From positions 1,120,001-1,184,000 of the forward strand of contig CAWCAG010000005.1 in NCBI GenBank assembly GCA_963793425.1: 64,000 nt of DNA, read 5' to 3'. The stretch is from an uncultured cyanobacterium (GTDB taxonomy: Bacteria; Cyanobacteriota; Cyanobacteriia; Cyanobacteriales; CAWCAG01). The notes below the pieces were generated by a model. The model saw only the letters and a list, made by a program, of their open reading frames with translations, did not search any database and was not told where the DNA came from. Positions 10,869 through 46,011 of the stretch are shown here, piece by piece. Each line of letters begins with the position of its first letter. Position 1 is the stretch's first letter. The position numbers and the translations under genes are program-made.

Positions 10869-11507
10869 TATTCTGGCCTCTTCAGTTCAACCGTTAAGTC
10901 CCAACGATCTTGAATAATATCTGGTGAATGAGTAGCCATTAAAATATCTAAGTCTGCAAGTTTAGTTATTTCTTTTAAATCCTCTAAAAACTGAATCTGC
11001 CATCCTACATGAAGAGAAAGTTCAGGTTCATCAATCATTACTAATGAGTTAGGTTGAACTTTAAACAGTAATTCATATAAAAGGACTAGTTCATGTTGTT
11101 CGCCTGATGAGAGATCAGTTGGTGAAAGTTTTTTTGCCTCAGTAGATGAATCATCATAGAGTGTTGCGAAAATAAATCCTTTGTCTTTGCTAAACTTTAT
11201 CTCTTTATAAGAGTAAGCAAATTTCTTATTGATAATTCTCCTTAGTAAGTCAATTTTTCTGGCAGTTTCCGCAAATACATTTAGTTTTTTCTCTACATTT
11301 TCAACATAGACAGATAAAGCATTTTTAGTACTTTCATCTATGTCTTGAGCTTGAATTTGAAATTCTGCTTCTTCTTCTTTATCTAAAAGTCCTACTTCTA
11401 TAAGACGAGAACGAGTTGACTCCAATTTATTTAATTTTTGACGAAGTTCTTCATCTGTTAAGTCTACCGAGGGTTGCTGTTTAACAACCCTCAAAGGAAA
11501 CGTTCTA
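10868..11507 (-). pseudogene. AAA_15/AAA_21-type ABC ATPase, C-terminal fragment
   Basis: Has signature LSSGEQH, Walker B MIDEPELSLH and H-loop ATHS, but no Walker A; the family-like sequence begins abruptly at RTFPLRVVKQ. Confidence 0.75.
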
Positions 11508-29059: not shown

Positions 29060-30274
<1,215 letters not shown>

Positions 30275-30318
30275 TTTTCCCTAACTGGATTTGTAGCAAC
30301 TAATATTTCCGATGAACA

Positions 30319-30376
30319 AGCGCGTTAGTATTTTCGGTGAAGGCTGAAAGGTACTAACGCGCTAAGTTCGTTTTTG
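30319..30376 (+). terminator. Stem-loop after petH
   Basis: 12-bp perfect inverted repeat AGCGCGTTAGTA/TACTAACGCGCT followed by a T-rich stretch. Confidence 0.6.
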
Positions 30377-30583
30377 GTTGTACAAAAAATAAGAATTAAG
30401 TTAAATTTAATTAAGATAGATGTGCTTTTAGGAGGCATTTATTCTCAAACAACCTTAAGTGTTTTTGACAAAAAAGCAATTTTATACTAAAGAGGTTTAA
30501 TTATTCAATCTTAAAAACCAACTTTTTAGCTTTCAATATCCAATAATTGTCAAACTAAGTATCTTAGAAACTAAATAAAAAAT

Positions 30584-32470
30584 ATGAAATTTTCCTGGAG
30601 AATCGTACTGCTTTGGACGTTACCAGCTTTAGTCATCGGCTTTTTCTTTTGGCAAGGAACCTTTGCTTCAGCTACAACCAACATGACTAACAACACAGCC
30701 AGTACTCGCATGACCTATAGTCGGTTTTTAGAGTATTTAGATGCAGGCAGAGTTAGTCGTGTTGACTTATTTGAAGGAGGCCGCACAGCCATTGTGCAAG
30801 CGGCAGACCCAGAATTAGATGATCGAGTCCAAAGATTACGAGTAGATTTACCCGCCACTGCTCCAGAATTAATTACTAAACTTAGGGATGCTAATGTGGC
30901 TTTAGATGCCCATCCTGCGGGTAACGAAGGAGCTTTGTGGGGCTTTTTGGGTAATTTAATCTTCCCCATCTTATTAATTGTGGCTCTATTTTTCCTCTTC
31001 CGCCGCTCCAGCAATATACCAGGAGGCCCTGGACAAGCCATGAATTTTGGTAAATCCCGCGCTCGTTTCCAAATGGAAGCTAAAACTGGGGTTTTGTTTG
31101 ATGATGTAGCTGGTATTGATGAAGCCAAAGAAGAATTACAGGAAGTAGTTACCTTCCTTAAACAGCCGGAACGTTTCACAGCAGTAGGCGCTCGCATCCC
31201 CAAAGGTGTATTATTAGTGGGGCCTCCAGGAACAGGTAAAACTCTACTCGCCAAAGCGATCGCCGGAGAAGCAGGAGTACCTTTCTTTAGTATTTCTGGT
31301 TCAGAATTTGTGGAGATGTTTGTTGGGGTTGGGGCCTCTCGCGTTCGAGATTTATTTAAGAAAGCCAAGGAAAATGCCCCTTGTCTCATTTTCATTGATG
31401 AAATTGATGCTGTGGGTCGCCAAAGGGGTGCAGGTATTGGTGGAGGAAATGATGAACGGGAACAGACCCTCAACCAGTTATTGACAGAAATGGATGGTTT
31501 TGAAGGCAACACCGGAATCATCATCATCGCCGCCACCAACCGTCCCGATGTCTTAGATTCTGCATTATTACGTCCAGGACGTTTTGACCGCCAGGTAATT
31601 GTTGATGCCCCTGACTTAAAAGGACGTATAGGAGTCCTAGACGTTCACGCACGCAACAAGAAGCTTGCAGAGGAGATTTCCTTAGAAACCGTTGCCAGGC
31701 GCACTCCTGGCTTCACAGGGGCTGATTTAGCCAACTTACTTAACGAGGCTGCTATTTTAACCGCCCGTCGTCGCAAAGAAGCCATCACCATGCAAGAAAT
31801 TGATGATGCGGTAGATCGGGTAGTTGCGGGGATGGAAGGCACTCCTTTAGTAGATAGTAAGAGCAAGCGTTTAATTGCTTACCACGAAGTTGGTCACGCT
31901 GTGGTAGGAACTTTACTTAAAGACCATGACCCTGTACAAAAAGTCACCCTGATTCCTAGGGGGCAGGCACAGGGTTTAACTTGGTTTACCCCTAATGAAG
32001 AACAAGGTTTAACCACCAGGGCGCAGTTAATGGCCCGAATCGCTGGTGCTATGGGGGGCAGGGCAGCAGAAGAAGAGATATTTGGCGATGCAGAAGTGAC
32101 TACTGGTGCTGGAGGTGACTTACAACAAGTTACTGGCATGGCTAGGCAAATGGTAACTCGTTTTGGTATGAGTGATTTGGGCCCTCTTTCCTTAGAAGGA
32201 CAACAGGGAGAAGTCTTCCTTGGGGGCAATGCTATGAACCGCGCCGAATATTCAGAAGTTGTTGCTGCTAAAATTGATGACCAAGTTCGCATCATTGCTG
32301 AACATGGTCATAACTTAGCTAGGGAAATAGTTAGGGAAAATCGCGAAGTGATGGATCGCTTAGTAGATTTATTAATTGAAAAAGAAACCATTGACGGCGA
32401 AGAGTTTCGGCAAATTGTTGCTGAGTATACTGATGTACCGGAAAAAGAACAGTATGTGCCTCAGTTGTAG
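30584..32470 (+). CDS. ftsH2: ATP-dependent zinc metalloprotease FtsH (FtsH2 type)
   Basis: MKFSWR..LLW N-terminus, [20 protein letters not shown]. Confidence 0.95.
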
Positions 32471-32533
32471 GAAGAAGGGAGTGGGGAGTAGGGAGTAGGC
32501 AGCAGCCCTTTCTGCTTCAACAATTAGGTTATG

Positions 32534-32569
32534 GGAGAAGGCGAGGAGAATCGCTTTCTCCTTTTTTTT
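32534..32569 (+). terminator. Intrinsic terminator after ftsH2
   Basis: GGAGAAGGCGA/TCGCTTTCTCC stem followed by T8. Confidence 0.75.
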
Positions 32570-32605
32570 GTTGTTAAGGAAACGTGTAAACATCCCATTC
32601 TTGAT

Positions 32606-32669
32606 GTAGGGGCGACCCAATTGTGTTGATTTATGGGGTACAAAAACAAGGTAAATGGGTCGCCCCTAC
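32606..32669. repeat. GTAG-headed REP/MITE-like element
   Basis: 14-bp perfect terminal inverted repeat GTAGGGGCGACCCA/TGGGTCGCCCCTAC. Confidence 0.7.
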
Positions 32670-32821
32670 GTTTTGGGAATAGTGCGATCGCAGACTAAAT
32701 ACGTTCCTGTATCTACTGGATTCTACTCCTGTTTAAAACCGTTAATTTTTCTTAAATCCTGGAACAAAATACCTGGGAAATTTATCTAGAAATAGGGTCG
32801 AACTATAAAATTATTTCTATC

Positions 32822-33490
32822 ATGTCTAACTTTAAATATGGTCGCTTTGGCATTTCTTTACTAGTTGTTTGCGGTGCGATTGCCACTGCAACAACTCCTT
32901 TACTTACAGCCATTCCTGCTTCTGCCCAACTGTTTCCTGCCCAGGAAAATAACAATGTTACTCCGCAACCAATAGTTATGCCTGCTGCAACAACTTTACC
33001 CGTTGAATACAAAGAAGCGGAGAAAATCATTCTCACCAAAGAAGAAACCGTTCCTTTAACCCTGACGGTAGCAGCAAATATTAAAAACAAACAAGGAGAA
33101 GTTTTAATTCCCTATGGCAGTGAAATTATTGGGGAATTACAGCCTAAAGATGGTGGCTCTCAGTTTGTGGCCCAAGAATTAGTTATTAGTACAGAAAAAC
33201 GACAACCTTTACAAGCCACTTCTCAAGTTATTACTCGCACAGAAAAAATTAATGAAGGAACTGATACAGGAGATATTCTGCAAGGGGCAGCTATTGGTGG
33301 TGCAGCAGCAGCAATAATTGCTCTGATTACCGGAGATAATTCTATTGATCTTTTGGAGGTTTTAGGAGGAGCAGGTTTAGGGGCGTTAGGAGGGATTCTC
33401 CTTGGTGGCAAGGAAACTGAGGTTATTTCCATCAACCCTAACGAAGATTTAAAGGTGACTTTGCTTGAAGATTTAAGTTTAGAAAATTAA
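32822..33490 (+). CDS. Secreted conserved cyanobacterial protein with a glycine-zipper segment
   Basis: Signal peptide ending ASA; ILQGAAIGGAAAA...VLGGAGLGALGG. Confidence 0.75.
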   Translation: MSNFKYGRFGISLLVVCGAIATATTPLLTAIPASAQLFPAQENNNVTPQPIVMPAATTLPVEYKEAEKIILTKEETVPLTLTVAANIKNKQGEVLIPYGSEIIGELQPKDGGSQFVAQELVISTEKRQPLQATSQVITRTEKINEGTDTGDILQGAAIGGAAAAIIALITGDNSIDLLEVLGGAGLGALGGILLGGKETEVISINPNEDLKVTLLEDLSLEN

Positions 33491-33651
33491 GGCAAATTTA
33501 GTTGATTTATAGTCTGGAATTTAGTTTAAACCAGATGTAGAAATACAGGGAAAAGTATTGAGTAGTTTAGTGATTTGGCTGCTCTTTATTTCCTATGGTT
33601 AAAAACTTTACTACTTTCTTCATCTAATACTATTTCATAAAAATATTGAAA

Positions 33652-35055
33652 ATGCACAAACAATTTTTCGGAAAACTATCTCTATTCGTATTTATTTTCA
33701 CAGCAACTCCAGGTTTGCTTCCTGCTGGCCCCAACTCACCTTTTTGCCCTCCTGCTGCTTGGGCTAGTAATAGGCATTTCGGTCAAGATGGTCGTGATGG
33801 CAGGGATGGCGAGACTGGCAGAAAAGGTCAATATGGAGAAAATCGCGAGATTTTTGTGGATGGTTCCCCTTTGAATCTCGACATCTCCGGTTCGGATGGA
33901 GAGGAAGGATATGATGGTGAAGATGGTGATCGTGCTAATTGTCACAACCAACCTAGAGATGTACGTCATGACTTAGAAGCTGCTGATGGGGGTGATGGTG
34001 GCGATGGGGGTGATGGTGGCGATGGGGGTGATGGCGGTATTCTTACTGTTTATTACAACAATATTGCCGACTTACGCCAAATTAATGTCCGTGCAGAAGG
34101 AGGAAGAGGAGGAGAATCAGGAGATTCTGGTTATGGTACAGCAGGTTGCAGTTGTCGGTGGCGACGTTGGGAGAAACGAACTTGTACTGGCAATCCAGGA
34201 GATCCTAATTATAGTTGCAAAACTGAAGAATTTGACTGTGAAGATGGGGAAAATGGCAGAGATGGTAGACGAGGTAGAAGAGGTAATAAAGGTGAATTGG
34301 GCAGGTTAGCACTAGTTAAAGACAATCAAAGATTAGCAGCAGATCAACCAACAGCTAATGTTTCTCTCTCTTCAGCCGCAGATAGGACTATCTCTTTATC
34401 TAAAAATATTTGGCAAACTCGGCGGGGGGCAAATTCTCTTTTAGCATCTGGTTCTATTATTAGCGATGAATATGATGAGTTTGTTGAACGTGTTGAAGGG
34501 GAGTTTCAGGTAGTTTGGAATGCTTCGCGCCCAATTACAGACTTTTATAATCAAAATCTTAGCTTAACTCTTGAGGGTCGCAACGATGTTAATATTGTTT
34601 CCCCTGAAGATGTTTGGTTAGAAAGTGAAACTTCCCAAAATAATGGCATCACTCAACTTAATATCACCAAAGCTGTTTTACGTCAAGAAGCAACTCAATT
34701 AACTAGGGCTGATTTTGCTGGTAATCGTTCTGGCTTAACTTTTAGCCTTATTGACAAAGCCAGACAGTCTGATGTCCTTGCTACTCAATTCCGCATTAAG
34801 TATCGTACAGGCAAAGACAGAAGTGGACCAAGACCTGATTCTGTGTTTAATTACACCACTAGATATGAAGGGACGATTCCTGGGGAACTAGTTAAACTGG
34901 AGGGACAACGCTTTACCCTAGATTTGGGTAAACTTCCTATTGATAGCGAATATCTTAGACCAGGAGTTAATGTTGATCTTGAAATTACGGCTGTTCGTTC
35001 TTTAGGAGGACGTTCGGCTGAACAAACCATTTCTTGGAAAGGAGAGATTGATTAA
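33652..35055 (+). CDS. Secreted collagen-like (Gly-X-Y) repeat protein
   Basis: GQDGRDGRDG, GGDGGDGG, GENGRDGRRG, Cys-rich knot; DNA repeat at 33985-34038. Confidence 0.8.
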   Translation: MHKQFFGKLSLFVFIFTATPGLLPAGPNSPFCPPAAWASNRHFGQDGRDGRDGETGRKGQYGENREIFVDGSPLNLDISGSDGEEGYDGEDGDRANCHNQPRDVRHDLEAADGGDGGDGGDGGDGGDGGILTVYYNNIADLRQINVRAEGGRGGESGDSGYGTAGCSCRWRRWEKRTCTGNPGDPNYSCKTEEFDCEDGENGRDGRRGRRGNKGELGRLALVKDNQRLAADQPTANVSLSSAADRTISLSKNIWQTRRGANSLLASGSIISDEYDEFVERVEGEFQVVWNASRPITDFYNQNLSLTLEGRNDVNIVSPEDVWLESETSQNNGITQLNITKAVLRQEATQLTRADFAGNRSGLTFSLIDKARQSDVLATQFRIKYRTGKDRSGPRPDSVFNYTTRYEGTIPGELVKLEGQRFTLDLGKLPIDSEYLRPGVNVDLEITAVRSLGGRSAEQTISWKGEID

Positions 35056-35099
35056 GGCCGCATCCTCTAGCAATATATACAAGTTTTCGGAGAAAATTA

Positions 35100-36083
35100 A
35101 TGAAGAAAGTCTTTTTAGTCGGTTCCCTAATGCTTCTTTTGGTAGGATGTGGTAACAAGGATTCTGCTTCTAATAAGTCTGTTAGCAGTGTTGGTACTCA
35201 GAAGTCTGAAGCGGCGGTTGAGTCTCAAGATTCTCAAGCAGTTGTGAACACAAAAGTAGAATTAATTAACCCAGGTGCTGAACCCAGACAAGAGTTACGT
35301 TTTGCCCCCAAGGTAAATCAGGAACAAACTGTCCAGATGAATATGCAAATGGAGATGAGTATGTCTTTAGCGGGGCAAACCCAACCTGCTTTTAAGAGTC
35401 CGCAGATGCAGATGACGGTGGAAGCGAAGGTAACAGATGTAGATGAAAATGGCGATATCCATGTTGATTTTTCCTATACCGATGCTGATGTTGTTGCTGA
35501 CAGCAATACTTCCCCTGAGATGGCTGAGGCGATGCGTAACCAAATTAAACAAATCGTCGGCTTCAAAGGTTCTATGGTTGTAGATTCTATGGGTAACACC
35601 AAAGATGTGAATTTTGACTTACCTGAAAGCGTTGACCCCAACAGCAAGCAGATGTTGGAACAGATGTTAAACTCCTTAAAACAATTATCGTCCCCTGTTC
35701 CGGCTCAAGCTGTGGGAGAAGGGGCAAAGTGGCAGGTTGATAATACTTTAACGGCTAATGGCATTACTTTAGACCAAGTTTCTACCTACGAAGTAGAAAG
35801 CTTACAAGGAGATACTGTTACCCTAAAAACCACTGTACAACAACAAGCAGACCCCCAAAAAGTTAGTCCTCCTGGTTTGCCTCCCAATGCTTCTATTAAC
35901 TTGCAATCTCTAAATTCCCAAGGCGAAGGTACATTCACCATTAAGTTAGACCAAATCTTGCCTACCAGCGCAACTATGGCCATAACTTCCGATACACAAA
36001 TGGCGGTTAAACAACCCGATAGTCAAGAGGAAATTCCTATGGGGATGAATATGGTGATGAATATGAGTTTGCAAGGGCAGTAA
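35100..36083 (+). CDS. Lipoprotein, DUF6263-like
   Basis: Lipobox LVGC; ELINPGAEPRQELRF, P.QAVGEGAKW. Confidence 0.7.
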   Translation: MKKVFLVGSLMLLLVGCGNKDSASNKSVSSVGTQKSEAAVESQDSQAVVNTKVELINPGAEPRQELRFAPKVNQEQTVQMNMQMEMSMSLAGQTQPAFKSPQMQMTVEAKVTDVDENGDIHVDFSYTDADVVADSNTSPEMAEAMRNQIKQIVGFKGSMVVDSMGNTKDVNFDLPESVDPNSKQMLEQMLNSLKQLSSPVPAQAVGEGAKWQVDNTLTANGITLDQVSTYEVESLQGDTVTLKTTVQQQADPQKVSPPGLPPNASINLQSLNSQGEGTFTIKLDQILPTSATMAITSDTQMAVKQPDSQEEIPMGMNMVMNMSLQGQ

Positions 36084-36110
36084 AGTATTCTGTTTTATGA
36101 AGAGGTTTGT

Positions 36111-36695
36111 ATGGTTAAACAGTTTGTTGCAATCCAAAAACATAATTACACTCCAGAAGAATATCTAGAGTTAGAAGCTAAAGCTGAATATAAAAGTGAA
36201 TATTTAGATGGGAAAATTATTCCTATGACAGGAGGCACTACCAATCATAATAAAATCGCTGGTAACTTTTATCGTCAGTTTCCTTTAACTATTGCTGGCC
36301 AAGATTATGATATTTATATAGGCGATGTGCGCCTATGGATTCCTGAATATCGCCATTATACTTATCCAGATATCATGATAGTTGAAGGAGAGACTGTTTA
36401 TGAAGGGAAAGGTACAACTACAATTACTAATCCCTTAATTGTTATGGAGGTTTTATCAAAATCTACCCAACAAACTGATAAAACTTCTAAATTTCGTTAC
36501 TATCGTTCTCTTCCTAGCTTCCAAGAATATATTTTAGTCAATCAATACAGTTATTATGCAGAGCAATATGTAAAACAAAAAAACGAACAATGGCTACTGC
36601 GTGACTATCAAGGAGAAGAGTCGATTTTAGCTTTGGCTAATCTAGAATTTGAAATTTCTTTTCTAGAGTTATACAAAAGGGTTAGTTTTACTTAA
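36111..36695 (+). CDS. Uma2 (DUF820) family endonuclease
   Basis: YTPEEYLELE..SEYLDG.I..M.GG..NHN, YPDI, EVLS.ST..D...KF..Y. Confidence 0.92.
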   Translation: MVKQFVAIQKHNYTPEEYLELEAKAEYKSEYLDGKIIPMTGGTTNHNKIAGNFYRQFPLTIAGQDYDIYIGDVRLWIPEYRHYTYPDIMIVEGETVYEGKGTTTITNPLIVMEVLSKSTQQTDKTSKFRYYRSLPSFQEYILVNQYSYYAEQYVKQKNEQWLLRDYQGEESILALANLEFEISFLELYKRVSFT

Positions 36696-37336
36696 AAAGA
36701 TTGATGTTTTAGGAAAGGGCGAGTACATTGAGTCTTCTTTGAGTCCTACTTTTCCTTGTTTTCTTATTGTTGAAGGGATTGAGCAGTTTGTGCAATGAGT
36801 TTAAATGCGGCTTTCAGGGAACTCCAGAAAAGAAAGCACCGATGAGAGGCAATTGAGCAAATAGTATAAGCAATAATATGTCTAAATTAATTTTTAGATT
36901 AAATCTTTTGAATTTACATAACTTCAACTTAAAATTTGTCAAGGCCAGAAAGTTGCTGCAAAAGACGCATTTGTGTGGTTTAATGGAATAATTAAAAAAT
37001 CATACTGCTCCTCTTGTATGCAAAATTTATATCTAATCCTTACAAGCAAGCTAAACCGTTGATTAAGCTACCATTTTCCTCAAAATTGTAGTGATTAGAA
37101 CTACTTTGTTAATCAAATATTGAGGGCGATTACAAAAGTTTTTTTGACAAATATGACTCTTTGGCTTAAAGTGTGTAATTTCAAATTGTGACCTTTGTCT
37201 CTAAACATTCAACGGAACACAAAAAAGCGATTAAGCATTGGTGACAAGTCAAGCAAAAGCACAAGTAGAATCATCTCCCTAGCTCCCCACCTCCCCCTGT
37301 ACTATAATCTCTTCAGACATCTATTTTTCCGAAATA

Positions 37337-38740
37337 ATGACCGAGCAACCCCGTAACCGTCAGGAACTCTATGATCTTGTTCGCGCAAGAGGGAAACAAG
37401 AATTTATTTTAGAAGAAATGACTCGCTTGGGTTTTTGGCCAGAGGAAGGAGAAATTCCCCAAGATCCGGCTGATGAAATCCGTCGCACAGGAGAGATTCG
37501 CAGAGAGTTAGAGCTGTTACGGCAAGAAAGTTCCCGACTTCACAACGAAAAAGCCCTTCGTAAAGAAGCTTTGAAGCAGAGGTTAGCAGAATCTCGGCGC
37601 AAACAGGCGGAAACCAAAGCAAGGCGGGAAAGAGAGCGACAGGAACGCGCAGAAGCTTGGCAGCAACGACAAGAGCAAGATATTGTTTATTTAGGGGAAG
37701 GAGTTTCAGGGGGACTTAATCATACCAACTGCGACGAAGAAAGGTTGCAATCGCGAGATTTACCACTCCTGGGAACAGCCCAGGAAATTGCCCAAGCAAT
37801 GGAAATTAGCATCGGGCAGTTGCGTTTCCTCGCTTTTAACCGCAAAACAGCTACTATCTCCCATTACATACGCTTCAAAATTCCGAAAAAGACGGGGGGA
37901 GAGCGACTAATATCGGCTCCTTTGCCGAAGTTAAAACAAGCCCAACACTGGCTTTTAAGCAATATTTTAGCAAAAATAGCCATTAATGATGCCGCTCATG
38001 GTTTTCGCCGCGATCGCTCTATAGTAACCAATGCTCAACCCCATGTTGGTGCTGATATTGTGATTAATTTTGACCTTAAGGATTTTTTCCCTTCTATCTC
38101 CTACAAAAGGGTTAAAGGATTGTTTCGCTCCTTCGGTTACTCAGAAGCTGCCGCCACTATTTTCGCTTTGTTATCTACCGAAGCAGCATTAGAAACAGTA
38201 CAACTAGATAATCAAACCTATTATGTCGCTTTAGGAGAGCGTCATTTACCCCAAGGCTCCCCGGCTTCCCCCGCTATTTCTAACCTTCTCTGTCGCCGTT
38301 TAGATAAACGCTTAACCACTGCAGCCGCAGAATTAGGCTTTACCTATACCCGCTATGCCGATGATCTCACCTTTTCAGCTTCTGGCGATCATCTCCGCTA
38401 TGTTTGTAATCTCCTTCGCCGTACTGAATCAATTGTTAGTCATGAAGGTTTTACCATTAACCCAGAAAAAACCAGGATCTTACGTCGCAAATCTAGCCAA
38501 TTAGAAGTAACTGGAGTTGTGGTTAACGAATTTCTTAACTTAGACCGTAAAACTCTCAAGCGCTTCCGTGCGACTTTGTACCAAATTGAAAAAGATGGCT
38601 TAACGGGAAAAACCTGGGGAAATTCCAACGATCTCCTGGCAGCAATCCAAGGTTTCAGTAATTTTGTGGACATGGTTAATTCAGTTAAAGGAAGCCAGTT
38701 TCAAGCACAAGTTAAGCGTATTAAGGAAAAGTGGTGTTGA
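37337..38740 (+). CDS. Retron-type reverse transcriptase (Mx162-like, long charged N-terminal extension)
   Basis: IPKKTGGER, AHGF, NAQPH (NAxxH), DLKDFFPSI, LPQGSPASP, YTRYADDLTFS, VTGVVVN. Confidence 0.9.
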   Translation: MTEQPRNRQELYDLVRARGKQEFILEEMTRLGFWPEEGEIPQDPADEIRRTGEIRRELELLRQESSRLHNEKALRKEALKQRLAESRRKQAETKARRERERQERAEAWQQRQEQDIVYLGEGVSGGLNHTNCDEERLQSRDLPLLGTAQEIAQAMEISIGQLRFLAFNRKTATISHYIRFKIPKKTGGERLISAPLPKLKQAQHWLLSNILAKIAINDAAHGFRRDRSIVTNAQPHVGADIVINFDLKDFFPSISYKRVKGLFRSFGYSEAAATIFALLSTEAALETVQLDNQTYYVALGERHLPQGSPASPAISNLLCRRLDKRLTTAAAELGFTYTRYADDLTFSASGDHLRYVCNLLRRTESIVSHEGFTINPEKTRILRRKSSQLEVTGVVVNEFLNLDRKTLKRFRATLYQIEKDGLTGKTWGNSNDLLAAIQGFSNFVDMVNSVKGSQFQAQVKRIKEKWC

Positions 38741-38839
38741 AAATCCGTTTAACTTTTGCTCAGACTAAAAAAGACTGCTGCTATCACAATTAAACATAAA
38801 AGAGCCAAGGGAACCAAAAGATTTAAAGGTTCGATCATC

Positions 38840-39589
38840 TCAAAAGGGAAAGGCAAATTTTTGGGAAGAAGCTTGTGTAGAATTAACTTGAGCAACAGCT
38901 TCTGCTAGAGGAACCAACCGTACTTCTTGCTGTTCTACCCTTACTTGATAAGCTAAACTATGGGTAAAGTCCAAAGCAGTCAGCCAGCCACTTTTACGGT
39001 GATAAGCTCCGGTATCAATATCTAACCAGCCCGGCCCTGAAGCGATTTTTCCTGGAGGTACTCCTGGTAGGGTAAAGGTAATGGTATGTCCTGTAATAAT
39101 TAATTTATCAGGAAAATAAGGTTTAGTGGTGCGGTGAAACTCTTCCCTAATCCAACAAAACTGTTCAGAAGTTTGTTGATCTAAAGGTAAATTAGGATTA
39201 ACTCCTGCATGAACCAGCCAAATATTCCCTAAATCGAGATAATTGGGTAAAGTGCGTAGCCATTCAATATGCTCTTTAGGAATACCTTCTTCCCCATAAC
39301 TAGCTATGGTGGCATAACCACCACTATACAGCCAAGCTTGTAGCGCTGCTTCAGAAGTAAATTCTTGATCCAAAACAGCAAGTAACATATCTTCGTGGTT
39401 GCCTAAAATACAAGAATAGTTATTCTGCATTACTAACTCAATTACTTGAGAACTTTTTGGTCCTCTATCAATAAGATCCCCAAGGAAATATACTCGATCT
39501 TGCTGTCCAGGAGCAACCGCTTCCAATAATATTTTCAAAGCATCGTAGTGACCATGAACATCACCAATCAAAATCTGGCGCTTTGTCAT
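38840..39589 (-). CDS. Ser/Thr protein phosphatase-type metallophosphoesterase
   Basis: GDVHG, GDLIDRGP, GNHE, VHAG, GHT, DTG. Confidence 0.93.
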   Translation of the reverse strand: MTKRQILIGDVHGHYDALKILLEAVAPGQQDRVYFLGDLIDRGPKSSQVIELVMQNNYSCILGNHEDMLLAVLDQEFTSEAALQAWLYSGGYATIASYGEEGIPKEHIEWLRTLPNYLDLGNIWLVHAGVNPNLPLDQQTSEQFCWIREEFHRTTKPYFPDKLIITGHTITFTLPGVPPGKIASGPGWLDIDTGAYHRKSGWLTALDFTHSLAYQVRVEQQEVRLVPLAEAVAQVNSTQASSQKFAFPF

Positions 39590-40034
39590 TGCTGCTGTTT
39601 ACACTCTCAAACTGAACTTAAGTGCTAGTACTGGGAAGCTCCCTGCTTTTTGCTTAACTAGCCTAGAGATGACTAACTATCAATGGATACAAACCCAAAG
39701 TAACCAAAATTTTGGTTTCTCTTAGATCGCCCCTCAAGTGAGGTTGTGTTGTCCAAAAGTTAGTACTACTTCCCTTATTTTGCCCTTAGCCTCAATATTA
39801 GTTCCTATTGGGATAAATAGAATCTGCAAAAAGTAAAATTAGCAATAAGTTTTAGGGATAAGCTGTCACACAGAAAAAAATGCTTGTTTGATGTTGAGGT
39901 GATGGTGATACCAAATCCTAGTGAGCGGCATGACTTATCTGTGAGGGTACCGAAGCGTTGCCGTTAGGTTACAGGGAATAGGGAGCAGGGAGTAGGGTTT
40001 GAGAAATTTTCCAGTAGATTTTATATTAGCTAAT

Positions 40035-40214
40035 TTAGTTTGCTACTTTTACTAAGCCGCGTTCTACACCATAAAACAACCTTTTAATTAAGGTGCGCTC
40101 AGTTTCTTCAATACCGTCTTCTTGTAAAAGAGATGTGATTAATTTTTGCTCAACAAGAGAAATAATGCGGGCAGACATGATTTGGCAGAACAGCTCTTGG
40201 ATATCGGTCTTCAT
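40035..40214 (-). CDS. Small (59 aa) cyanobacterial hypothetical protein, missed by the ORF track
   Basis: MKTDIQELFCQIMSARIISLVEQKLITSLLQEDGIEETERTLIKRLFYGVERGLVKVAN; EEE..I.RL.Y.V.RG-type C-terminus. Confidence 0.6.
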   Translation of the reverse strand: MKTDIQELFCQIMSARIISLVEQKLITSLLQEDGIEETERTLIKRLFYGVERGLVKVAN

Positions 40215-40425
40215 GGCTTCTCAAAAATTGCGTGTTGACTGAAAACTTTGTTTCCCTTATGTATATAAGTATCGACTTTGTGAGCTACTATTTCCGTGAC
40301 TCAGTAATTATATTGAAGTGATAAAAGTTTGTTTTTGTAGTGACCGCGATCGCACCCTAATTTTCTCTTTTTAAAAGTAATCTTTTCTTAGCAACTAAAT
40401 AAAAATATCTGTTTTATTCACTGTT

Positions 40426-41145
40426 TTAAAAGGTTCGCAAAACTACTCCATCTAAGTTCGCTCCCAATAAATTAGCTCCATCTAAATTAGCTCCACTTAG
40501 GTCTACACCTGTTAAATCTGTTTGACTTAAATTTGCTTCCTCTAAATTAGCGCCGCTTAAATCTGCCTTACGGAAGTTGGCTCTTCCTAAGTTAGCTCCG
40601 GTAAGATTAGTATCAACCAAATCTGCTCCTAAAAAGTTTGCCCTATCTAAATTAGCTCCGGTTAAGTCTGCTTGGCTCAGATCCGCTCCGGTTAAGTCTG
40701 CTTGACTGAAATTACTTCGCAAACCGATGGCTTGAGCAAGATTAGCTCCCACAAGGTTAGCTTGGCTAAGATCAGCCCCAGTGAGGTTAGCTCTAACTAA
40801 GTTAGCTTTGGTAAGATTAGCTTTGGTAAGATTAGCTCGCATTAAGTAAATTTTTTTCAGACAAACTCGACTGAGATTCGCTTCTTCTAAGTCTGCTTGA
40901 ATACAAATTGCTTCTGTTAAGTTGGCTCTAGTTAAATCTGCTTTAACTAAATTAGCCTCGGTAAAATTTACTCTAGTAAGGTTAGCTTCGAGGAGTTCGG
41001 CTAAAGAGAAGTTTACTTTAGTTAAATCCCTCTCGGCTAAAACAACTCCAATTAAGTCAGGTACTAACTGGAGATTTTCAATTCTCCAGTTATTCCAGGT
41101 GATGATGCCTTGATCTAACAGAGCAATATGGTTGGGATCAGCCAT
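40426..41145 (-). CDS. Pentapeptide repeat protein
   Basis: A(N/D)LxX repeats throughout; WNNWR N-cap. Confidence 0.95.
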   Translation of the reverse strand: MADPNHIALLDQGIITWNNWRIENLQLVPDLIGVVLAERDLTKVNFSLAELLEANLTRVNFTEANLVKADLTRANLTEAICIQADLEEANLSRVCLKKIYLMRANLTKANLTKANLVRANLTGADLSQANLVGANLAQAIGLRSNFSQADLTGADLSQADLTGANLDRANFLGADLVDTNLTGANLGRANFRKADLSGANLEEANLSQTDLTGVDLSGANLDGANLLGANLDGVVLRTF

Positions 41146-41517
41146 GTAAAAGTAGGGTTTCGGATGAAAATTAACTTTTGTTAAGTTTAATTGTAAAGGA
41201 ATTTCAAGAAAATTAACAATTAGTTAATGTTTCATTAGTTTGCGTTATTATATCTAACTAGTTTGATAATTTGGATAGCTAGTGATTACTCCTAGTAGTC
41301 CTATCCCGAAAGGCTCATGTTCAGCTACTATTCTGGCAAGAATTCAGCAAGGTGGTTTGGTTTCTAGGCGTTTGAGCAATGATCACAAAGATGCACTCAG
41401 AGCTTTTTTAGAATTATCTTAGAAGCATTTGAGTGTTTTCATTTGGATAAGTTAGGCTTTAGCAAGAAAAATAGCTAATCTAAATTTATATCTTTTGGGA
41501 TAAAATAAATTACCTCC

Positions 41518-42018
41518 TCAACTTTGCCAAGCTCTTTGTAACATTTGCCAAAGAGTTTGTACAGATTGCTTAAGTTGACGCTTGCGTTCCCACTTCAAAA
41601 AATCTTGTTCATAAGCTTCTCCTTTGCTTTGATAAGTTCTCCAAGCACTCAGAGAGAGAAACATACCAGAAATCAAAAGAGTATATACTGACCAAGAAAG
41701 ATGACTAGAACTGATTGAGTTGAGACTTACTAAAAAGACATTGATAATTGCATACTTGGCAACTTTCTGTTGTAGCTTTTCTTTTCGGTATAAATTAAAA
41801 GTTTGCCGTCTTTGGTCTATAAGTTGCTGAGATAGCCAATCTTGTTCCGCTTTCTGCATACATTCAAGGGGAATTTCTAATTCTGTGGCAATCTCCCAAA
41901 GTTCTTCTCTAGAAAACTCTTCTCGATCAGCTTGGCGAGTGATTGCCAGTTGCAGAATTTGTTGCAGTTGTTCTTGATTATAGGATGAGGGGGTTGAAAG
42001 TTCTGAAGCTGACATCAT
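41518..42018 (-). CDS. 2TM domain-containing protein
   Basis: QQILQLAI..Q..EFSREELWEIA.EL.I; two TM segments; YEQDF.KW. Confidence 0.8.
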   Translation of the reverse strand: MMSASELSTPSSYNQEQLQQILQLAITRQADREEFSREELWEIATELEIPLECMQKAEQDWLSQQLIDQRRQTFNLYRKEKLQQKVAKYAIINVFLVSLNSISSSHLSWSVYTLLISGMFLSLSAWRTYQSKGEAYEQDFLKWERKRQLKQSVQTLWQMLQRAWQS

Positions 42019-42273
42019 GCGATTACTGGGTTTGGGTTACAGGTAAGCGTCGCTGGGGTGAAGCAGCATTTACAAAGAAAATGGTCTAGGAATCCTAGTT
42101 ATATTATGCCTAACTTATTGAGGTAATGGCAGATCCTGAATTTGTCTTCATAACCGAACTTTAAAGGACGGCATTTACGGCAATCTGTTTGCGGTGGTTA
42201 TTTTTACACTTCGTTACAATGTTTTTATGGAGAAATAAAGTTTTTCCTAACTTAAGAAAAAAGGTCATTATTT

Positions 42274-43395
42274 ATGAACAATAATATTCGTGTTGGTAAT
42301 TTATTTGGTATTCCTTTCTTTATTAATCCCTCCTGGTTTTTAGTACTAGGATTAGTTACTTTATCTTTCGGGGGGCAGCTAGCTGGGTTTCCTCAGTTAT
42401 CAGGATTAGTACCTTGGATTTTAGGATTAATCACAGCTTTGTTATTGTTTGCTTCAGTATTGGCCCATGAATTGGGACATAGTGCTGCAGCTATTCAACA
42501 AGGAATTAGCGTCAAATCCATAACTCTTTTTATCTTTGGTGGTTTAGCTTCTTTAGAAAGGGAATCAAAAACTCCTGGAGAAGCCTTTCTCGTTGCGATC
42601 GCAGGGCCGTTAGTTAGTTTACTATTATTTGGCTTATTTACTATCTTGGCCCTCACCACAGGCGTTTCTGGACCTTTAGCAGTAATCATTAATCTGCTAG
42701 CTTCTATTAATTTAGTTTTAGCTTTATTTAACTTGCTGCCAGGTTTACCTTTAGACGGTGGTAATATTCTCAAAGCTTTGGTTTGGAAGGTTACCGGAAA
42801 TCCCTATAAAGGTGTAGTTTTTGCTAGTAGAGTTGGTCAGTTTTTTGGTTGGCTAGCAGTAATGGTCGGCGGCTTAGCTATCTTAGGAATTAGCCCTGTG
42901 GGTAGTTTCTGGACTCTATTAATTGGTTTCTTTTTACTACAAAATGCAGGATTTTCTGCCCAGTCAGCTAACCTTCAGGATAAACTCAACAATTTAACTG
43001 CCGCAGATGCAGTAATTCCTAACAGTCCAGTTATTTCTGCTGATTTGAATTTACGGGAATTTGCTAATAACTATGTAATTGGTAATGGTAAATGGCGTAA
43101 GTTTTTAGTAACGAATGAAGCCGAACAACTAATTGGTACTGTTGTTGTTGATGATATGAAATTAGTTTCTACCTCTTTATGGCCAGAAACTTCTATCCAA
43201 GAAGTGATGAAATCAACGGCTGAAACAATTACGGTGAATGCCCGCCAATCTCTTTTAGAAGTTGTACAATTACTTGAACAAAAAGAAGTTCAACAGCTAC
43301 CAGTTATTAGTGAAAATGGTACTGTGGTAGGGTTATTAGAAAAAGCATCAATTATGAGCTTATTACAAAAGCAGGGACAAACTAATCCTGCTTAA
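42274..43395 (+). CDS. Site-2 protease (M50) with CBS domains
   Basis: HELGH, AGP.VS, FNLLPGLPLDGG; C-terminal CBS pair. Confidence 0.93.
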   Translation: MNNNIRVGNLFGIPFFINPSWFLVLGLVTLSFGGQLAGFPQLSGLVPWILGLITALLLFASVLAHELGHSAAAIQQGISVKSITLFIFGGLASLERESKTPGEAFLVAIAGPLVSLLLFGLFTILALTTGVSGPLAVIINLLASINLVLALFNLLPGLPLDGGNILKALVWKVTGNPYKGVVFASRVGQFFGWLAVMVGGLAILGISPVGSFWTLLIGFFLLQNAGFSAQSANLQDKLNNLTAADAVIPNSPVISADLNLREFANNYVIGNGKWRKFLVTNEAEQLIGTVVVDDMKLVSTSLWPETSIQEVMKSTAETITVNARQSLLEVVQLLEQKEVQQLPVISENGTVVGLLEKASIMSLLQKQGQTNPA

Positions 43396-43422
43396 AGCTT
43401 AATACCAAGTAAAATAATTGAT

Positions 43423-43471
43423 GTAGAGACGTTAAACTTAACGTCTCTATTTCTTTAGAGACGTTAAGTTT
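43423..43471. repeat. GTAGAGACG-type REP-like palindrome with three arms
   Basis: TAGAGACGTTAA/TTAACGTCTCTA and an alternative 16-bp pairing AAACTTAACGTCTCTA/TAGAGACGTTAAGTTT. Confidence 0.7.
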
Positions 43472-43557
43472 TACTATACAAATATACATAGGAACTGATA
43501 TATTCATCTGCCCAAGTAAAAAAGAAAACCTTGAATATTTTGCGAACTTAATTTTTA

Positions 43558-46011
43558 ATGCTGCTTCAATACTTTGAAAACCGCCCCAATCTTGCTGTTA
43601 ATTATGTATTAACCAGTACTTCCATATCTCTAAACTCCTTTTTGTGGTTTTTACTTATCCTTGCTTTGGTTTTGCTTTTTGCCAGATTAAGAAAAGTCAA
43701 GGAAAGAAACAATGAGGTTATTTTACGAGATCGCTACATAAGTGCCTTGATTGAGGTTCAATTTGAGTTACTAGCTTATTTAGGCAATTCCCACAGTTAT
43801 GAAAAAATTATCTTGACTTTAGGAAAAGCAGCCAGAGCTAGTCGAGTCTATATTTGGGAAAGTGACCTAAATAAAGAAAGTTCACTAACTCATTATCAAG
43901 TAGAATGGTGCGCTTCAGAAATTGCTTCTCCTAAAAAAGATCGTCTTTCTCAAACTTTTTACCAAGAAATACTTGCTAATAGAATCTCTTTTTTTTCTCA
44001 AGGTCAATATCTCCACGAAGTAGTTGAGGATTTACCAGGATTGGAAAAGAATTTTTTTATAGCTAGAGATGTTTTGTCGGTTTTAATCTTTCCTTTAATG
44101 GTTAACAAAGAATGTTGGGGAATTATTGGTTTTGAGAACTGTCTAGAAGCTAAGTTGTGGGAATCTATAGAAATAACTTGGTTACATTCATCCGCTAATG
44201 CTATTGCTTTAGCTCAAGCAAATCAAATTAGTAAAGAAGAGTTAGAAAAAGTCAATTTTCAACTAGAAGAAAGAGCAACTGAACGTAGTGCAAAGCTAAT
44301 TCAGACTAACGAAAAGCTTTTAAAAGAGCTTACACAAAGAAAGCAAATTCAAGAAAACCTTATTGAAAGCCAATTATCTTTAACTACTATCAATAGAATA
44401 TCCACTGGTATTATTGATGATTTATCGATTGAAAAAATTATAGCAGAAACTTTTCAAAGACTAGGTAAATATTATTTAGATATTAGTATAGCTTACGCAG
44501 TAAGGCATGGTAGAGGAGAGTTAGAAGTCAGATACCATTATAGTCATCCTGGAAGTAATGATAGTTTAATCGGCAAAAAAATAGAGCTTAATGTGGTTCC
44601 TAATTGCCTAGAAAATCTCTCCAAAGGAGCCATGATTATAGCCAATGATATAAGCAAAGAACCACAACTGCTTCCTCTTTTACCTCAACTTTCTAACCAT
44701 CAAATTGGCAGTTGGCTAGTTGCTTCCCTCCATAATAGTAAAAAGTTTTTTGGTTTAATCTACTTCTATACCTCAGAACCAAGAAACTGGAGTTATTATG
44801 AAATTTCTACTTTAAAAGAATCTGCTAAATATCTGTCCATTGCCCTTAAAAATTATCAAACCGAAACACAATTGCAAGAATATCGTAATCATCTTCAGCA
44901 GCTAGTTCAAGAACGCACTCAGTCTCTAGTAAAAACAAACCAGAAACTCAAAAAAGAAATTAGCGATCGCTTACAAGTTGAAGAAGCTTTACGCCATAGC
45001 GAAGATAGATTTAGAGTAACTTTTAATCAAGCTGCTATAGGAATCATTCAGACTGATTTAAAAGGAAACTTCCTTAACATGAATCCTAAGTTTTGCCAAA
45101 TCATTGGTTATTCTCGGAGTGAACTTCTTACCAAGAATATCGAGGAGATTACTCATCCTGATGATCGGGAAAATTCTTGGCAGTTATTTAGCCAATTATT
45201 AGCAGGAGAGACTTCTACATTTGTTCTAGAAGAGCGTTATGTCTGTAAAAATGGCAGCCTTATTTGGGCTAATTCAACTGCTTCTTTAGTCTATCTTCCT
45301 AATGGCAAACCCCACTATACTATCGGTATTATTGAAGATATTAGTGAGCGCAAAGAGATAAAAGAGAAAATCAAAGCTTCTTTACGAGAAAAGGAAATTC
45401 TCCTTAAAGAAATTCATCACAGAGTTAAAAACAACTTACACATAATTTCTAGCTTACTAGACTTACAATCTGACTATCTTGAAGACGAACGTTTTTCTAG
45501 TATTTTTGCCGATAGTCAAAGTCGCATTGAAACTATGGCCTTAGTTCACGAACAGCTTTATCAATCTAAAGATTTGAGGCAAATTAATCTAGAAGATTAT
45601 ATACATCGATTAATGGACAACTTAGCTATTTCCTACAACTGCGATTTGAGTATTATCTCACTGTTTGTAGAAGTTGAACCTGTCATTCTCAACTTAGAAA
45701 CAGCAATTCCCTGTGGTTTATTAATTAATGAATTAGTTACTAATTGTTTCAAATATGCCTTTCCCTATGGACGTAGCGGCAAAATTCACATTAAACTTCA
45801 ACAAAATACTGAAAAAAGAATCTGTTTAGCGGTTTGGGATAATGGTGTTGGCATTCCCCCCAGCGTTGATTGGCAAAATTCTAACTCTTTAGGCTTAGAA
45901 TTAGTGCATACATTAGCTGAGCAGTTGCACGCTGAAATAACTCTTGATCGTAAAAATGGTACTTCTTTTACTTTCAGATTTTTTCAACTCAACTACAAAG
46001 CCAGATTTTAA
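43558..46011 (+). CDS. GAF-GAF-PAS sensor histidine kinase (HisKA_2 type)
   Basis: ITHPDD PAS; KEIHHRVKNNL; MALVHEQLY; NELVTNCFKYAF; DNGVG, SLGL. Confidence 0.92.
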   Translation: MLLQYFENRPNLAVNYVLTSTSISLNSFLWFLLILALVLLFARLRKVKERNNEVILRDRYISALIEVQFELLAYLGNSHSYEKIILTLGKAARASRVYIWESDLNKESSLTHYQVEWCASEIASPKKDRLSQTFYQEILANRISFFSQGQYLHEVVEDLPGLEKNFFIARDVLSVLIFPLMVNKECWGIIGFENCLEAKLWESIEITWLHSSANAIALAQANQISKEELEKVNFQLEERATERSAKLIQTNEKLLKELTQRKQIQENLIESQLSLTTINRISTGIIDDLSIEKIIAETFQRLGKYYLDISIAYAVRHGRGELEVRYHYSHPGSNDSLIGKKIELNVVPNCLENLSKGAMIIANDISKEPQLLPLLPQLSNHQIGSWLVASLHNSKKFFGLIYFYTSEPRNWSYYEISTLKESAKYLSIALKNYQTETQLQEYRNHLQQLVQERTQSLVKTNQKLKKEISDRLQVEEALRHSEDRFRVTFNQAAIGIIQTDLKGNFLNMNPKFCQIIGYSRSELLTKNIEEITHPDDRENSWQLFSQLLAGETSTFVLEERYVCKNGSLIWANSTASLVYLPNGKPHYTIGIIEDISERKEIKEKIKASLREKEILLKEIHHRVKNNLHIISSLLDLQSDYLEDERFSSIFADSQSRIETMALVHEQLYQSKDLRQINLEDYIHRLMDNLAISYNCDLSIISLFVEVEPVILNLETAIPCGLLINELVTNCFKYAFPYGRSGKIHIKLQQNTEKRICLAVWDNGVGIPPSVDWQNSNSLGLELVHTLAEQLHAEITLDRKNGTSFTFRFFQLNYKARF

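Follow-up and report, generated by a model that had tools for sequence, protein, structure and literature searches.

A type XIII retron of a cyanobacterium whose four parts are probably one system scattered over the chromosome

A stretch of 64,000 nucleotides from an uncultured member of the Cyanobacteriales (hereafter the window) carries, at positions 37337 to 38740 of its forward strand, an intact gene for a retron-type reverse transcriptase (RT) that stands by itself. Our analysis indicates that this gene probably belongs to a complete type XIII retron, the four parts of which are scattered over the chromosome, with the RT acting on a template encoded in trans. In the usual cassette, the parts follow one another in the order WGR-HEAT gene, SWIM gene, msr-msd (the noncoding template RNA, ncRNA), and RT gene. 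That they form one system here is argued from their layout and the selection acting on them in a congener, from their co-occurrence in a survey of 151 genomes, and from named genomes in which the RT locus is bare.

The reverse transcriptase of the window

The initial annotation of this DNA, made from the letters alone, had described a complete RT of 467 amino acids (aa) with the motifs NAxxH, YADD, and VTG, an N-terminal extension of about 140 aa, and a HIP1 site. The open reading frame (ORF), the Pfam match, and the motifs bear this out, and the HIP1 site is where it was said to be:

37337..38740, forward strand: type XIII retron RT gene (ATG start, 467 aa, intact ORF; G000:C5:1157337-1158740 in genome coordinates)
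37337..37756, forward strand: N-terminal extension of the RT (aa 1-140), first a conserved mini-module, then a long charged helix
37880..38521, forward strand: RT catalytic domain (aa 182-395; Pfam RVT_1, E 1.1e-25)
38010-38017, forward strand: HIP1 octamer inside the RT gene
38030-38044, forward strand: NAQPH motif (aa 232-236)
38354-38365, forward strand: YADD motif (aa 340-343)
38507-38515, forward strand: VTG motif (aa 391-393)

NAQPH, YADD, and VTG are invariant across an alignment (A3) of 38 RT homologues. The PADLOC model RT_XIII (PDLC02956) matches aa 2-466 with 636.5 bits (E 7.6e-192), against 310 bits for the second-best model, RT_other, and the gene is single-copy, there being no other strong match to the RT_XIII profile in the genome to which the window belongs (G000). 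Type XIII corresponds to RT clade 10 of Mestre et al. 2020 (PMC7736814), which, in the accessible part of that work, includes Mx162, Mx65, Sa163, and Ne144. Judged by its sequence, the window RT is a full-length member of this clade, as the annotation had anticipated in comparing it with Mx162 and Sa163; the annotation's hope of an undescribed system is not borne out, since the system is the type XIII of PADLOC and of Mestre et al.

The annotation had also set the enzyme apart from group II introns. Indeed, the group II maturase model TIGR04416 gives 72.4 bits, below its cut-off of 300, the NCBIfam models of other retron types all stay under their cut-offs, and an Rfam search of positions 30000-46000 with E values up to 10 returned no retron family and no intron RNA, only five sub-threshold chance matches. 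The group II-like RTs of this genome are separate frames of 658-670 aa. The closest solved relative of the catalytic core is the RT of retron Ec86 (7v9u, 7v9x, 8qbk; E 3e-43, aa 136-417), which, unlike the window RT, has no N-terminal extension and works with a different effector (type II-A). The AlphaFold2 model of the whole RT is of low confidence (mean pLDDT 60.8, pTM 0.33). HIP1 sites are frequent in the window as a whole (35 versus 0.21 expected).

The N-terminal extension falls within the match to the RT_XIII profile, and eleven positions in its first part (M1, P5, E10, L11, Y12, L25, M28, G32, F33, W34, and P41) are invariant in the 38 homologues. AlphaFold2 predicts, with low confidence, two short helices (aa 8-30) and one long helix (aa 44-115), with a pLDDT of 76-83 across aa 51-110. 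The same extension, of unknown function, was described in the RTs of Mx162, Mx65, Sa163, and Ne144 in the available text of Simon et al. 2019 (PMC6868368), and by profile and alignment it is a family trait of type XIII RTs. The annotation had supposed that this domain might replace the partners as an effector; it is, however, conserved to the same degree in RTs sitting in full operons. A complex prediction with aa 1-880 of the WGR-HEAT protein and aa 1-120 of the RT gave scores of 0.18 and 0.01, against a mark of 0.32, values that speak neither for nor against a contact.

Partner genes and template RNA at distant loci

Eighty related loci, nearly all of them cyanobacterial and 66-76% identical, were fetched and their ORFs clustered. 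Two genes recur upstream of the RT, and they match the PADLOC models WGR_XIII (1290 bits) and SWIM_XIII (823 bits). Mestre et al. linked type XIII to a DEDE/winged-helix/SWIM protein, to a WGR and HEAT/ARM protein, and to an ncRNA structure of its own (PMC7736814). All three counterparts are found in the genome of the window:

G000:C9:699175-700851: SWIM_XIII gene for a SWIM/DEDE protein (match at 699175-700800, 812 bits, profile positions 1-503 of 509, open frame)
G000:C9:833599-836754: WGR-HEAT_XIII gene (match at 833599-836736, 1203 bits, profile positions 1-970 of 973, open frame)
G000:C5:626677-626925: msr-msd-like ncRNA (245 nt, about 530 kb from the RT gene)

Each is single. The SWIM_XIII model has one match in the genome, and WGR_XIII has one strong match, the other 23 reaching at most 20.7 bits. 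The two genes lie 133 kb apart on contig C9, and the RT gene lies on C5. The SWIM protein matches Pfam SWIM and contains Dx7Dx4Ex32D (from aa 140) and CxCx12CxH (at aa 517). In the WGR-HEAT protein, Pfam recognizes WGR and HEAT_2. A sequence search for solved relatives of the type XIII SWIM or WGR-HEAT proteins returned none.

The RNA was recognized from a noncoding element of about 240 nt that lies between the SWIM and RT genes of compact operons. It is present in 43 of the 80 loci, always on the RT strand and usually directly after SWIM; its copies are 66-83% identical among relatives, and it extends to Nannocystis (about 75% nucleotide identity) and Pyrinomonadaceae (about 66%). An nhmmer profile of the element has a single match in the genome of the window (C5:626683-626920, E 4.5e-61; the next at E 2.8). 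A covariance model, built from these elements of compact operons rather than from published type XIII models, gives 240.9 bits at the same place and 13.4 bits for the next best; on copies outside its training set, it gives 237.8 bits (congener G001) and 226.8 bits (G006).

In the predicted fold of the RNA, a1 and a2 pair over 18 bp to close the structure, which holds an msr hairpin and a long msd hairpin; this architecture agrees with the published description of msr-msd transcripts (PMC7736814), with their one to three msr hairpins. Its minimum free energy is -105.2 kcal/mol (z -8.8), and none of 200 shuffles folds as well. In 31 copies, 92.3% of the cells are paired, versus 34-47% with slid partners; compensatory double changes occur in 36 of 53 pairs, versus 15-23; and the covariation score is 0.379, versus at most 0.11. 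An a1/a2 duplex of at least 10 pairs is found in all 31 copies despite their differing sequence, and in 22 of them it beats all 200 shuffles.

The RNA of this genome lies in an intergenic gap between two minus-strand ORFs. A sigma-70-like promoter site, TTGACT-17-TAAAAT, ends 6 nt before the element (L095:5643-5671; a consensus match only), and its -10 box is kept in G001. A T-run follows a2 (L095:5915-5925; columns 308-316 of alignment A1) in most of the 31 copies, those of compact operons included. The RNA therefore looks like an independent transcription unit, and it may be one everywhere, which would make detachment easy.

Some related loci depart from this simple scheme. Two msr-msd-like copies occur in the loci L025, L029, L061, L080, and L081 and in the genomes G005, G017, G055, G061, G077, and G116, typically one after SWIM and the other just before the RT or elsewhere, so one RT may serve two templates. 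Some 14 loci (L006:7913-9895, L008, L010, L028, L033, L044, L057, L085, and others) have an RNase III gene (Ribonuclease_3 and dsrm) directly upstream of the RT on the same strand, and in some loci a gene with a NYN domain is inserted between ncRNA and RT; a link of these genes to ncRNA processing is possible.

Within the window itself, the annotation had noted that neither SWIM and WGR/ARM partners nor an msr-msd adjoin the RT. No SWIM, WGR, or HEAT gene occurs within positions 27000-49000, and the covariance model finds no msr-msd in the window: its best score over the whole length is 13.4 bits, at 11105-11208, taken as chance, and with filters off nothing exceeds 9 bits in 35500-40000. The annotation had said that an msr-msd in the upstream spacer together with canonical partners in a merely displaced operon would count against its reading. 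Half of this applies: the canonical partners were found, but with all four parts apart rather than in a displaced operon, and the spacer holds no msr-msd.

One explanation, favored by the annotation, is a true orphan RT that has lost its retron context and either uses a non-canonical template or forms a new system by means of its N-terminal domain. Such an RT would have no partner and no ncRNA in its 64-kb surroundings, as is seen here, and the long (640 bp), AT-rich spacer upstream of the gene and an extension to which the accessible text of PMC6868368 assigns no function would suit it as well. However, every canonical part is present elsewhere in the genome, intact and in single copy, so the RT is not without partner genes; the RNA is no non-canonical one but the conserved element that compact operons carry between SWIM and RT; the spacer shows no conservation even within the genus and is partly a dispersed repeat (see below); and the extension is no better conserved here than in full operons. 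We therefore consider a true orphan very improbable. The trans-encoded template that the annotation had listed among its suggestions, now found at C5:626677, is the likely solution.

Conservation in a congener

In the congener G001, of the same genus, the four parts lie on four contigs. Since the four-locus layout is found in both G000 and G001, dispersal is older than the divergence of the two species, each of which has since retained all parts. The two genomes are alike for only 33 nt in front of the ncRNA and 39 nt in front of the RT start codon, and the DNA that matches the window upstream of the RT sits on another contig in G001. The three proteins are under strong purifying selection while unlinked: at a synonymous divergence (dS) of about 0.5-0.56, the ratio of nonsynonymous to synonymous divergence (dN/dS) is 0.083 for the RT, 0.063 for SWIM, and 0.171 for WGR-HEAT. 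Between the ncRNA copies, identity is 95%, and two of the base pairs have changed in a compensatory manner.

These values bear on another possibility, that the four genes are leftovers which no longer cooperate, each kept separately or being lost, with the RT playing no role on the distant ncRNA. The break-up of an operon often precedes the loss of its genes, and this is a point in favor of the idea. Against it stand the selection on the three proteins, still strong at a dS of about 0.55 after dispersal, and the pairing of the RNA, kept by compensatory changes over the same period; moreover, an msr-msd RNA has no known use without an RT.

Co-occurrence and layout across the Cyanobacteriales

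The survey covered 151 genomes of the order (that of the window and 150 others), all at least 90% complete. Of these, 35 have a full-length RT_XIII, 35 have both SWIM and WGR, neither of which occurs alone, and 36 have the ncRNA; 33 genomes possess the complete set, 4 an incomplete one, and 114 no part at all. Among the 33 complete sets, the layouts are the following:

compact: 13 of 33
RT detached from an intact WGR-SWIM-ncRNA block: 13 of 33
RT and WGR both detached: 2 of 33
all four apart: 5 of 33 (G000, G001, G063, G120, and G154)

Splits within one contig, in which the separation is proven, were found in G000 and in four further genomes:

G006: 3.38 Mb
G080: 640 kb
G117: 27 kb, on opposite strands
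G154: at least 45 kb between all parts

In addition, five named genomes were chosen for their bare RT locus. Each of the five has, at other places, a single SWIM, a single ncRNA, and one or more WGR; they include the following strains:

Chlorogloeopsis fritschii PCC 6912: RT about 1.56 Mb away from a WGR-SWIM-ncRNA block
Calothrix parasitica NIES-267: about 1.19 Mb
Moorena bouillonii PNG: SWIM, WGR, and ncRNA at three loci

Of the related loci, 38 extend at least 9 kb to either side of the RT; they comprise 21 full ones, 13 with the RT alone, 3 with RT and ncRNA, and 1 with SWIM, ncRNA, and RT. A careful RT tree follows host taxonomy, in keeping with the vertical inheritance of type XIII noted, in the text available, by Mestre et al. 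(PMC7736814). On this tree, the label "RT alone" requires six changes (bootstrap range 6-8), and the well-supported branches force at least three changes of the detachment label. Full-length relatives are absent from phage records, none of 11 matches covering 80% or more; among plasmid records, 9 of 56 are full-length, all on non-cyanobacterial replicons of 0.75-2.8 Mb.

That the four parts are found together in 33 of the 37 genomes holding any of them is a further argument against an orphan RT. As for the leftovers, the survey cuts both ways. Four of the 37 genomes hold only some parts, and absence from 114 of 151 means that loss is frequent. However, the SWIM and WGR sets are the same (35 of 35), 33 of these 35 genomes also hold RT and ncRNA, whatever the linkage, and detachment arose at least three times with the parts kept each time. 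On balance, we think it unlikely that the parts have ceased to cooperate.

The survey also turned up a second, shorter RT_XIII-like lineage, with scores of about 525-540 bits and a match that begins at profile position 77-93:

G008:C1:2836446-2837561
G022:C60:125735-126832
G070:C1:4027467-4028531
G082:C324:1018-2109

In G008, a weak match to the ncRNA model (51.8 bits) lies beside the shorter RT, and no SWIM or WGR was found there. Among the related loci, L042 (JBLNEP010000209.1) is labelled as an Actinomycetota metagenome-assembled genome; its RT is 73% identical to that of the window and nests within Oscillatoriales RTs, so it is probably a mis-binned cyanobacterial contig.

Surroundings of the RT gene and the assembly

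36111-36695, forward strand: Uma2 gene, 5' flank of the RT (family match)
36696..37336, no strand: spacer upstream of the RT, about 640 bp, AT-rich, with no retron ncRNA, containing a repeat and a breakpoint
36860-37163: dispersed repeat of about 300 bp in the spacer, with 12 other copies in the genome
37144..37172, forward strand: promoter-like site upstream of the RT, TTGACA-17-TAAAGT, 10 of 12 positions (consensus match only)
about 37192-37298: rearrangement breakpoint relative to the congener, just downstream of the repeat
38840-39589, reverse strand: metallophosphatase, convergent 3' flank (family match)

The annotation was right about the flanks, Uma2 and a convergent phosphatase, and wrong in taking the neighboring accessory genes to be decaying: the Uma2, metallophosphatase, and DUF6263 neighbors are open frames with near full-length family matches. 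The 12 other copies of the spacer repeat in this genome are 69-84% identical, and G001 has at least 12 copies. Recombination between repeats or between Uma2 genes was considered as a possible cause of the dispersal; no copy of this repeat occurs at the ncRNA, SWIM, or WGR loci. When the 700 nt upstream of the RT were compared by blastn with the upstream regions of 76 relatives, only the coding start was shared, and an ncRNA within the spacer was dropped as a candidate for this reason. Promoter-like sites in the upstream region do not exceed chance (6 versus 4.0 +/- 1.9 in shuffles).

A Uma2 gene adjoins both the RT and, at G000:C5:625819-626586, the distant ncRNA; with 96 Uma2 matches in the genome, this could be a coincidence or a hint of rearrangement hot spots. 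One contig from an independent sample (run X3) matches the RT from its start codon at 37337 and has 255 unrelated letters upstream, which suggests a strain or relative with another context upstream of the RT.

A more trivial explanation for the dispersal would be an error of assembly or binning, the parts being truly adjacent. The genome looks metagenome-derived (sediment metagenome runs), public contigs end at the repeat shortly before the RT (36898-36938), and many of the surveyed assemblies are fragmented. However, none of RT, SWIM, WGR, and ncRNA is near a contig end, each lying hundreds of kb inside a contig of 1.1-2.2 Mb; in G000 as in G001, the ncRNA is followed directly on its 3' side by a minus-strand ORF and not by the RT; and the 430 nt directly 5' of the RT are bridged by independent public contigs and hold no ncRNA. 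Moreover, detached layouts are also found in the complete or near-complete genomes G006, G080, and G154 and in the three named strains above. An artefact is, accordingly, hardly credible.

A retron working in trans

The system thus resembles the known type XIII retrons (Retron-Mxa1/Mx162, Mxa2/Mx65, Sau1/Sa163, and Nex2/Ne144; PMC7736814) in its RT family, with the same N-terminal extension and NAxxH, YADD, and VTG motifs, and in its accessory families, a SWIM/DEDE winged-helix protein and a WGR and HEAT/ARM protein. The msr-msd is also close to that of Mx162 in build and size, with about 245 nt against the 241 nt given for the Mx162 primary transcript in the accessible text of PMC6868368. It differs from them in that none of the four parts is linked to another, and in that the multicopy single-stranded DNA (msDNA) of the cyanobacterial members is still putative. 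More generally, it departs from the definition of a retron, the ncRNA not being contiguous with the RT (about 530 kb) and the accessory genes not being co-localised. In having no accessory gene beside the RT, it recalls the orphan retrons of the Ec107 branch. However, most hosts of that branch, in the part of Mestre et al. consulted (PMC7736814), have no accessory homologues and keep the ncRNA beside the RT; here, the accessory proteins are encoded elsewhere and the ncRNA is detached.

A precedent for the separation is artificial. In engineered split retrons such as CRISPEY, the msr-msd is transcribed from a unit of its own and the RT is provided in trans (PMC6868368), and since these constructs work, the chemistry does not need co-transcription. 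Unlike such laboratory constructs of the Ec86 type, the split here is natural, stable over speciation, and extends to the accessory genes.

On this basis, and on established retron biochemistry as far as the accessible portions of PMC7736814 and PMC6868368 present it, we infer how reverse transcription in trans, the formation of a complex, and a biological role might follow. The ncRNA would be transcribed alone, from its own locus, and would fold by way of its end repeats, a1 and a2, into one hairpin for msr and a long one for msd. The RT, translated from a separate mRNA, would locate this RNA in trans, prime from the 2'-OH of a guanosine beside the a1/a2 stem, and copy the msd hairpin into msDNA, the length of which, estimated from the fold, would be roughly 130-145 nt. 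The RT-msDNA particle would then act with the WGR-HEAT protein and the nuclease-like SWIM/DEDE protein, as in other tripartite retrons.

Several points weigh against a scattered retron of this kind. A textbook retron is co-transcribed, and its RT is thought to bind its own transcript. For efficient natural action in trans, engineered split retrons are the only support (PMC6868368), and the same text by Simon et al. 2019 terms the cyanobacterial retrons putative. At the level of the parts, CAGC follows a1 in many ncRNA copies but is not conserved in all 31, the alignment singling out no priming guanosine, and the last E of the DEDE motif of the SWIM protein is spaced x38, against x37 as published. 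Public contigs bridge the Uma2-RT junction only via a 19-30 nt overlap inside the repeat. In the survey, 20 of the 33 complete sets have the RT apart from the ncRNA, but 16 of these 20 calls place the parts on different contigs of fragmented assemblies, which give no true distance; as related genomes are no independent samples, the co-occurrence counts carry less statistical weight than they seem to; and there are the 4 partial sets among 37, G012 having RT and ncRNA, G109 the RT only, and G082 and G143 no full-length RT. The four partial genomes are assemblies of 250-640 contigs.

The literature searched contained no paper testing type XIII, which is listed among defence systems, nor any natural unlinked retron or work on cyanobacterial type XIII; this search covered openly available text, and closed-access journals or the supplementary tables to Mestre et al. 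2020 may list such loci. With these points included, a complete type XIII retron scattered over the chromosome is still the probable explanation of the window RT. As to its role, we lean towards a vertically inherited, chromosomally fixed module for immunity or genome surveillance rather than a mobile defence island. Chromosomal scatter, single copies, vertical descent, and host-like sequence features all argue for such a fixed module.

A wider proposal can be made for the order, and we hold it to be evenly balanced between true and false: in the Cyanobacteriales, type XIII would be no mobile cassette but a domesticated, vertically inherited, multi-locus chromosomal system in which the ncRNA has its own promoter and terminator, a free-standing RT acts in trans, and WGR-HEAT and SWIM/DEDE proteins are supplied from further loci, the unlinked state being the commoner one and having arisen repeatedly.

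Significance

The definition of a retron, its detection, and its use in engineering all presuppose a contiguous msr-msd-RT cassette with its effectors alongside. In the present case, the four parts are intact, under selection, and strictly co-occurring yet unlinked, and this is the majority state in one large bacterial order. It would provide evidence from nature that the RT of a retron is able to find its template in trans, and it would explain a class of "orphan" RTs. If this is true, contiguity is not required in retron biology, and many "orphan" retron-type RTs may belong to scattered systems that are invisible to co-localisation tools, so that neighborhood calling in the style of PADLOC or DefenseFinder would under-count them. 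Chlorogloeopsis fritschii PCC 6912, Calothrix parasitica NIES-267, and Moorena bouillonii PNG are culturable strains in which RT and ncRNA could be deleted separately. That the parts are no longer clustered and descend vertically speaks for a fixed host function over a horizontally traded defence island, and this bears on the old question of the purpose of the myxobacterial-type msDNAs.

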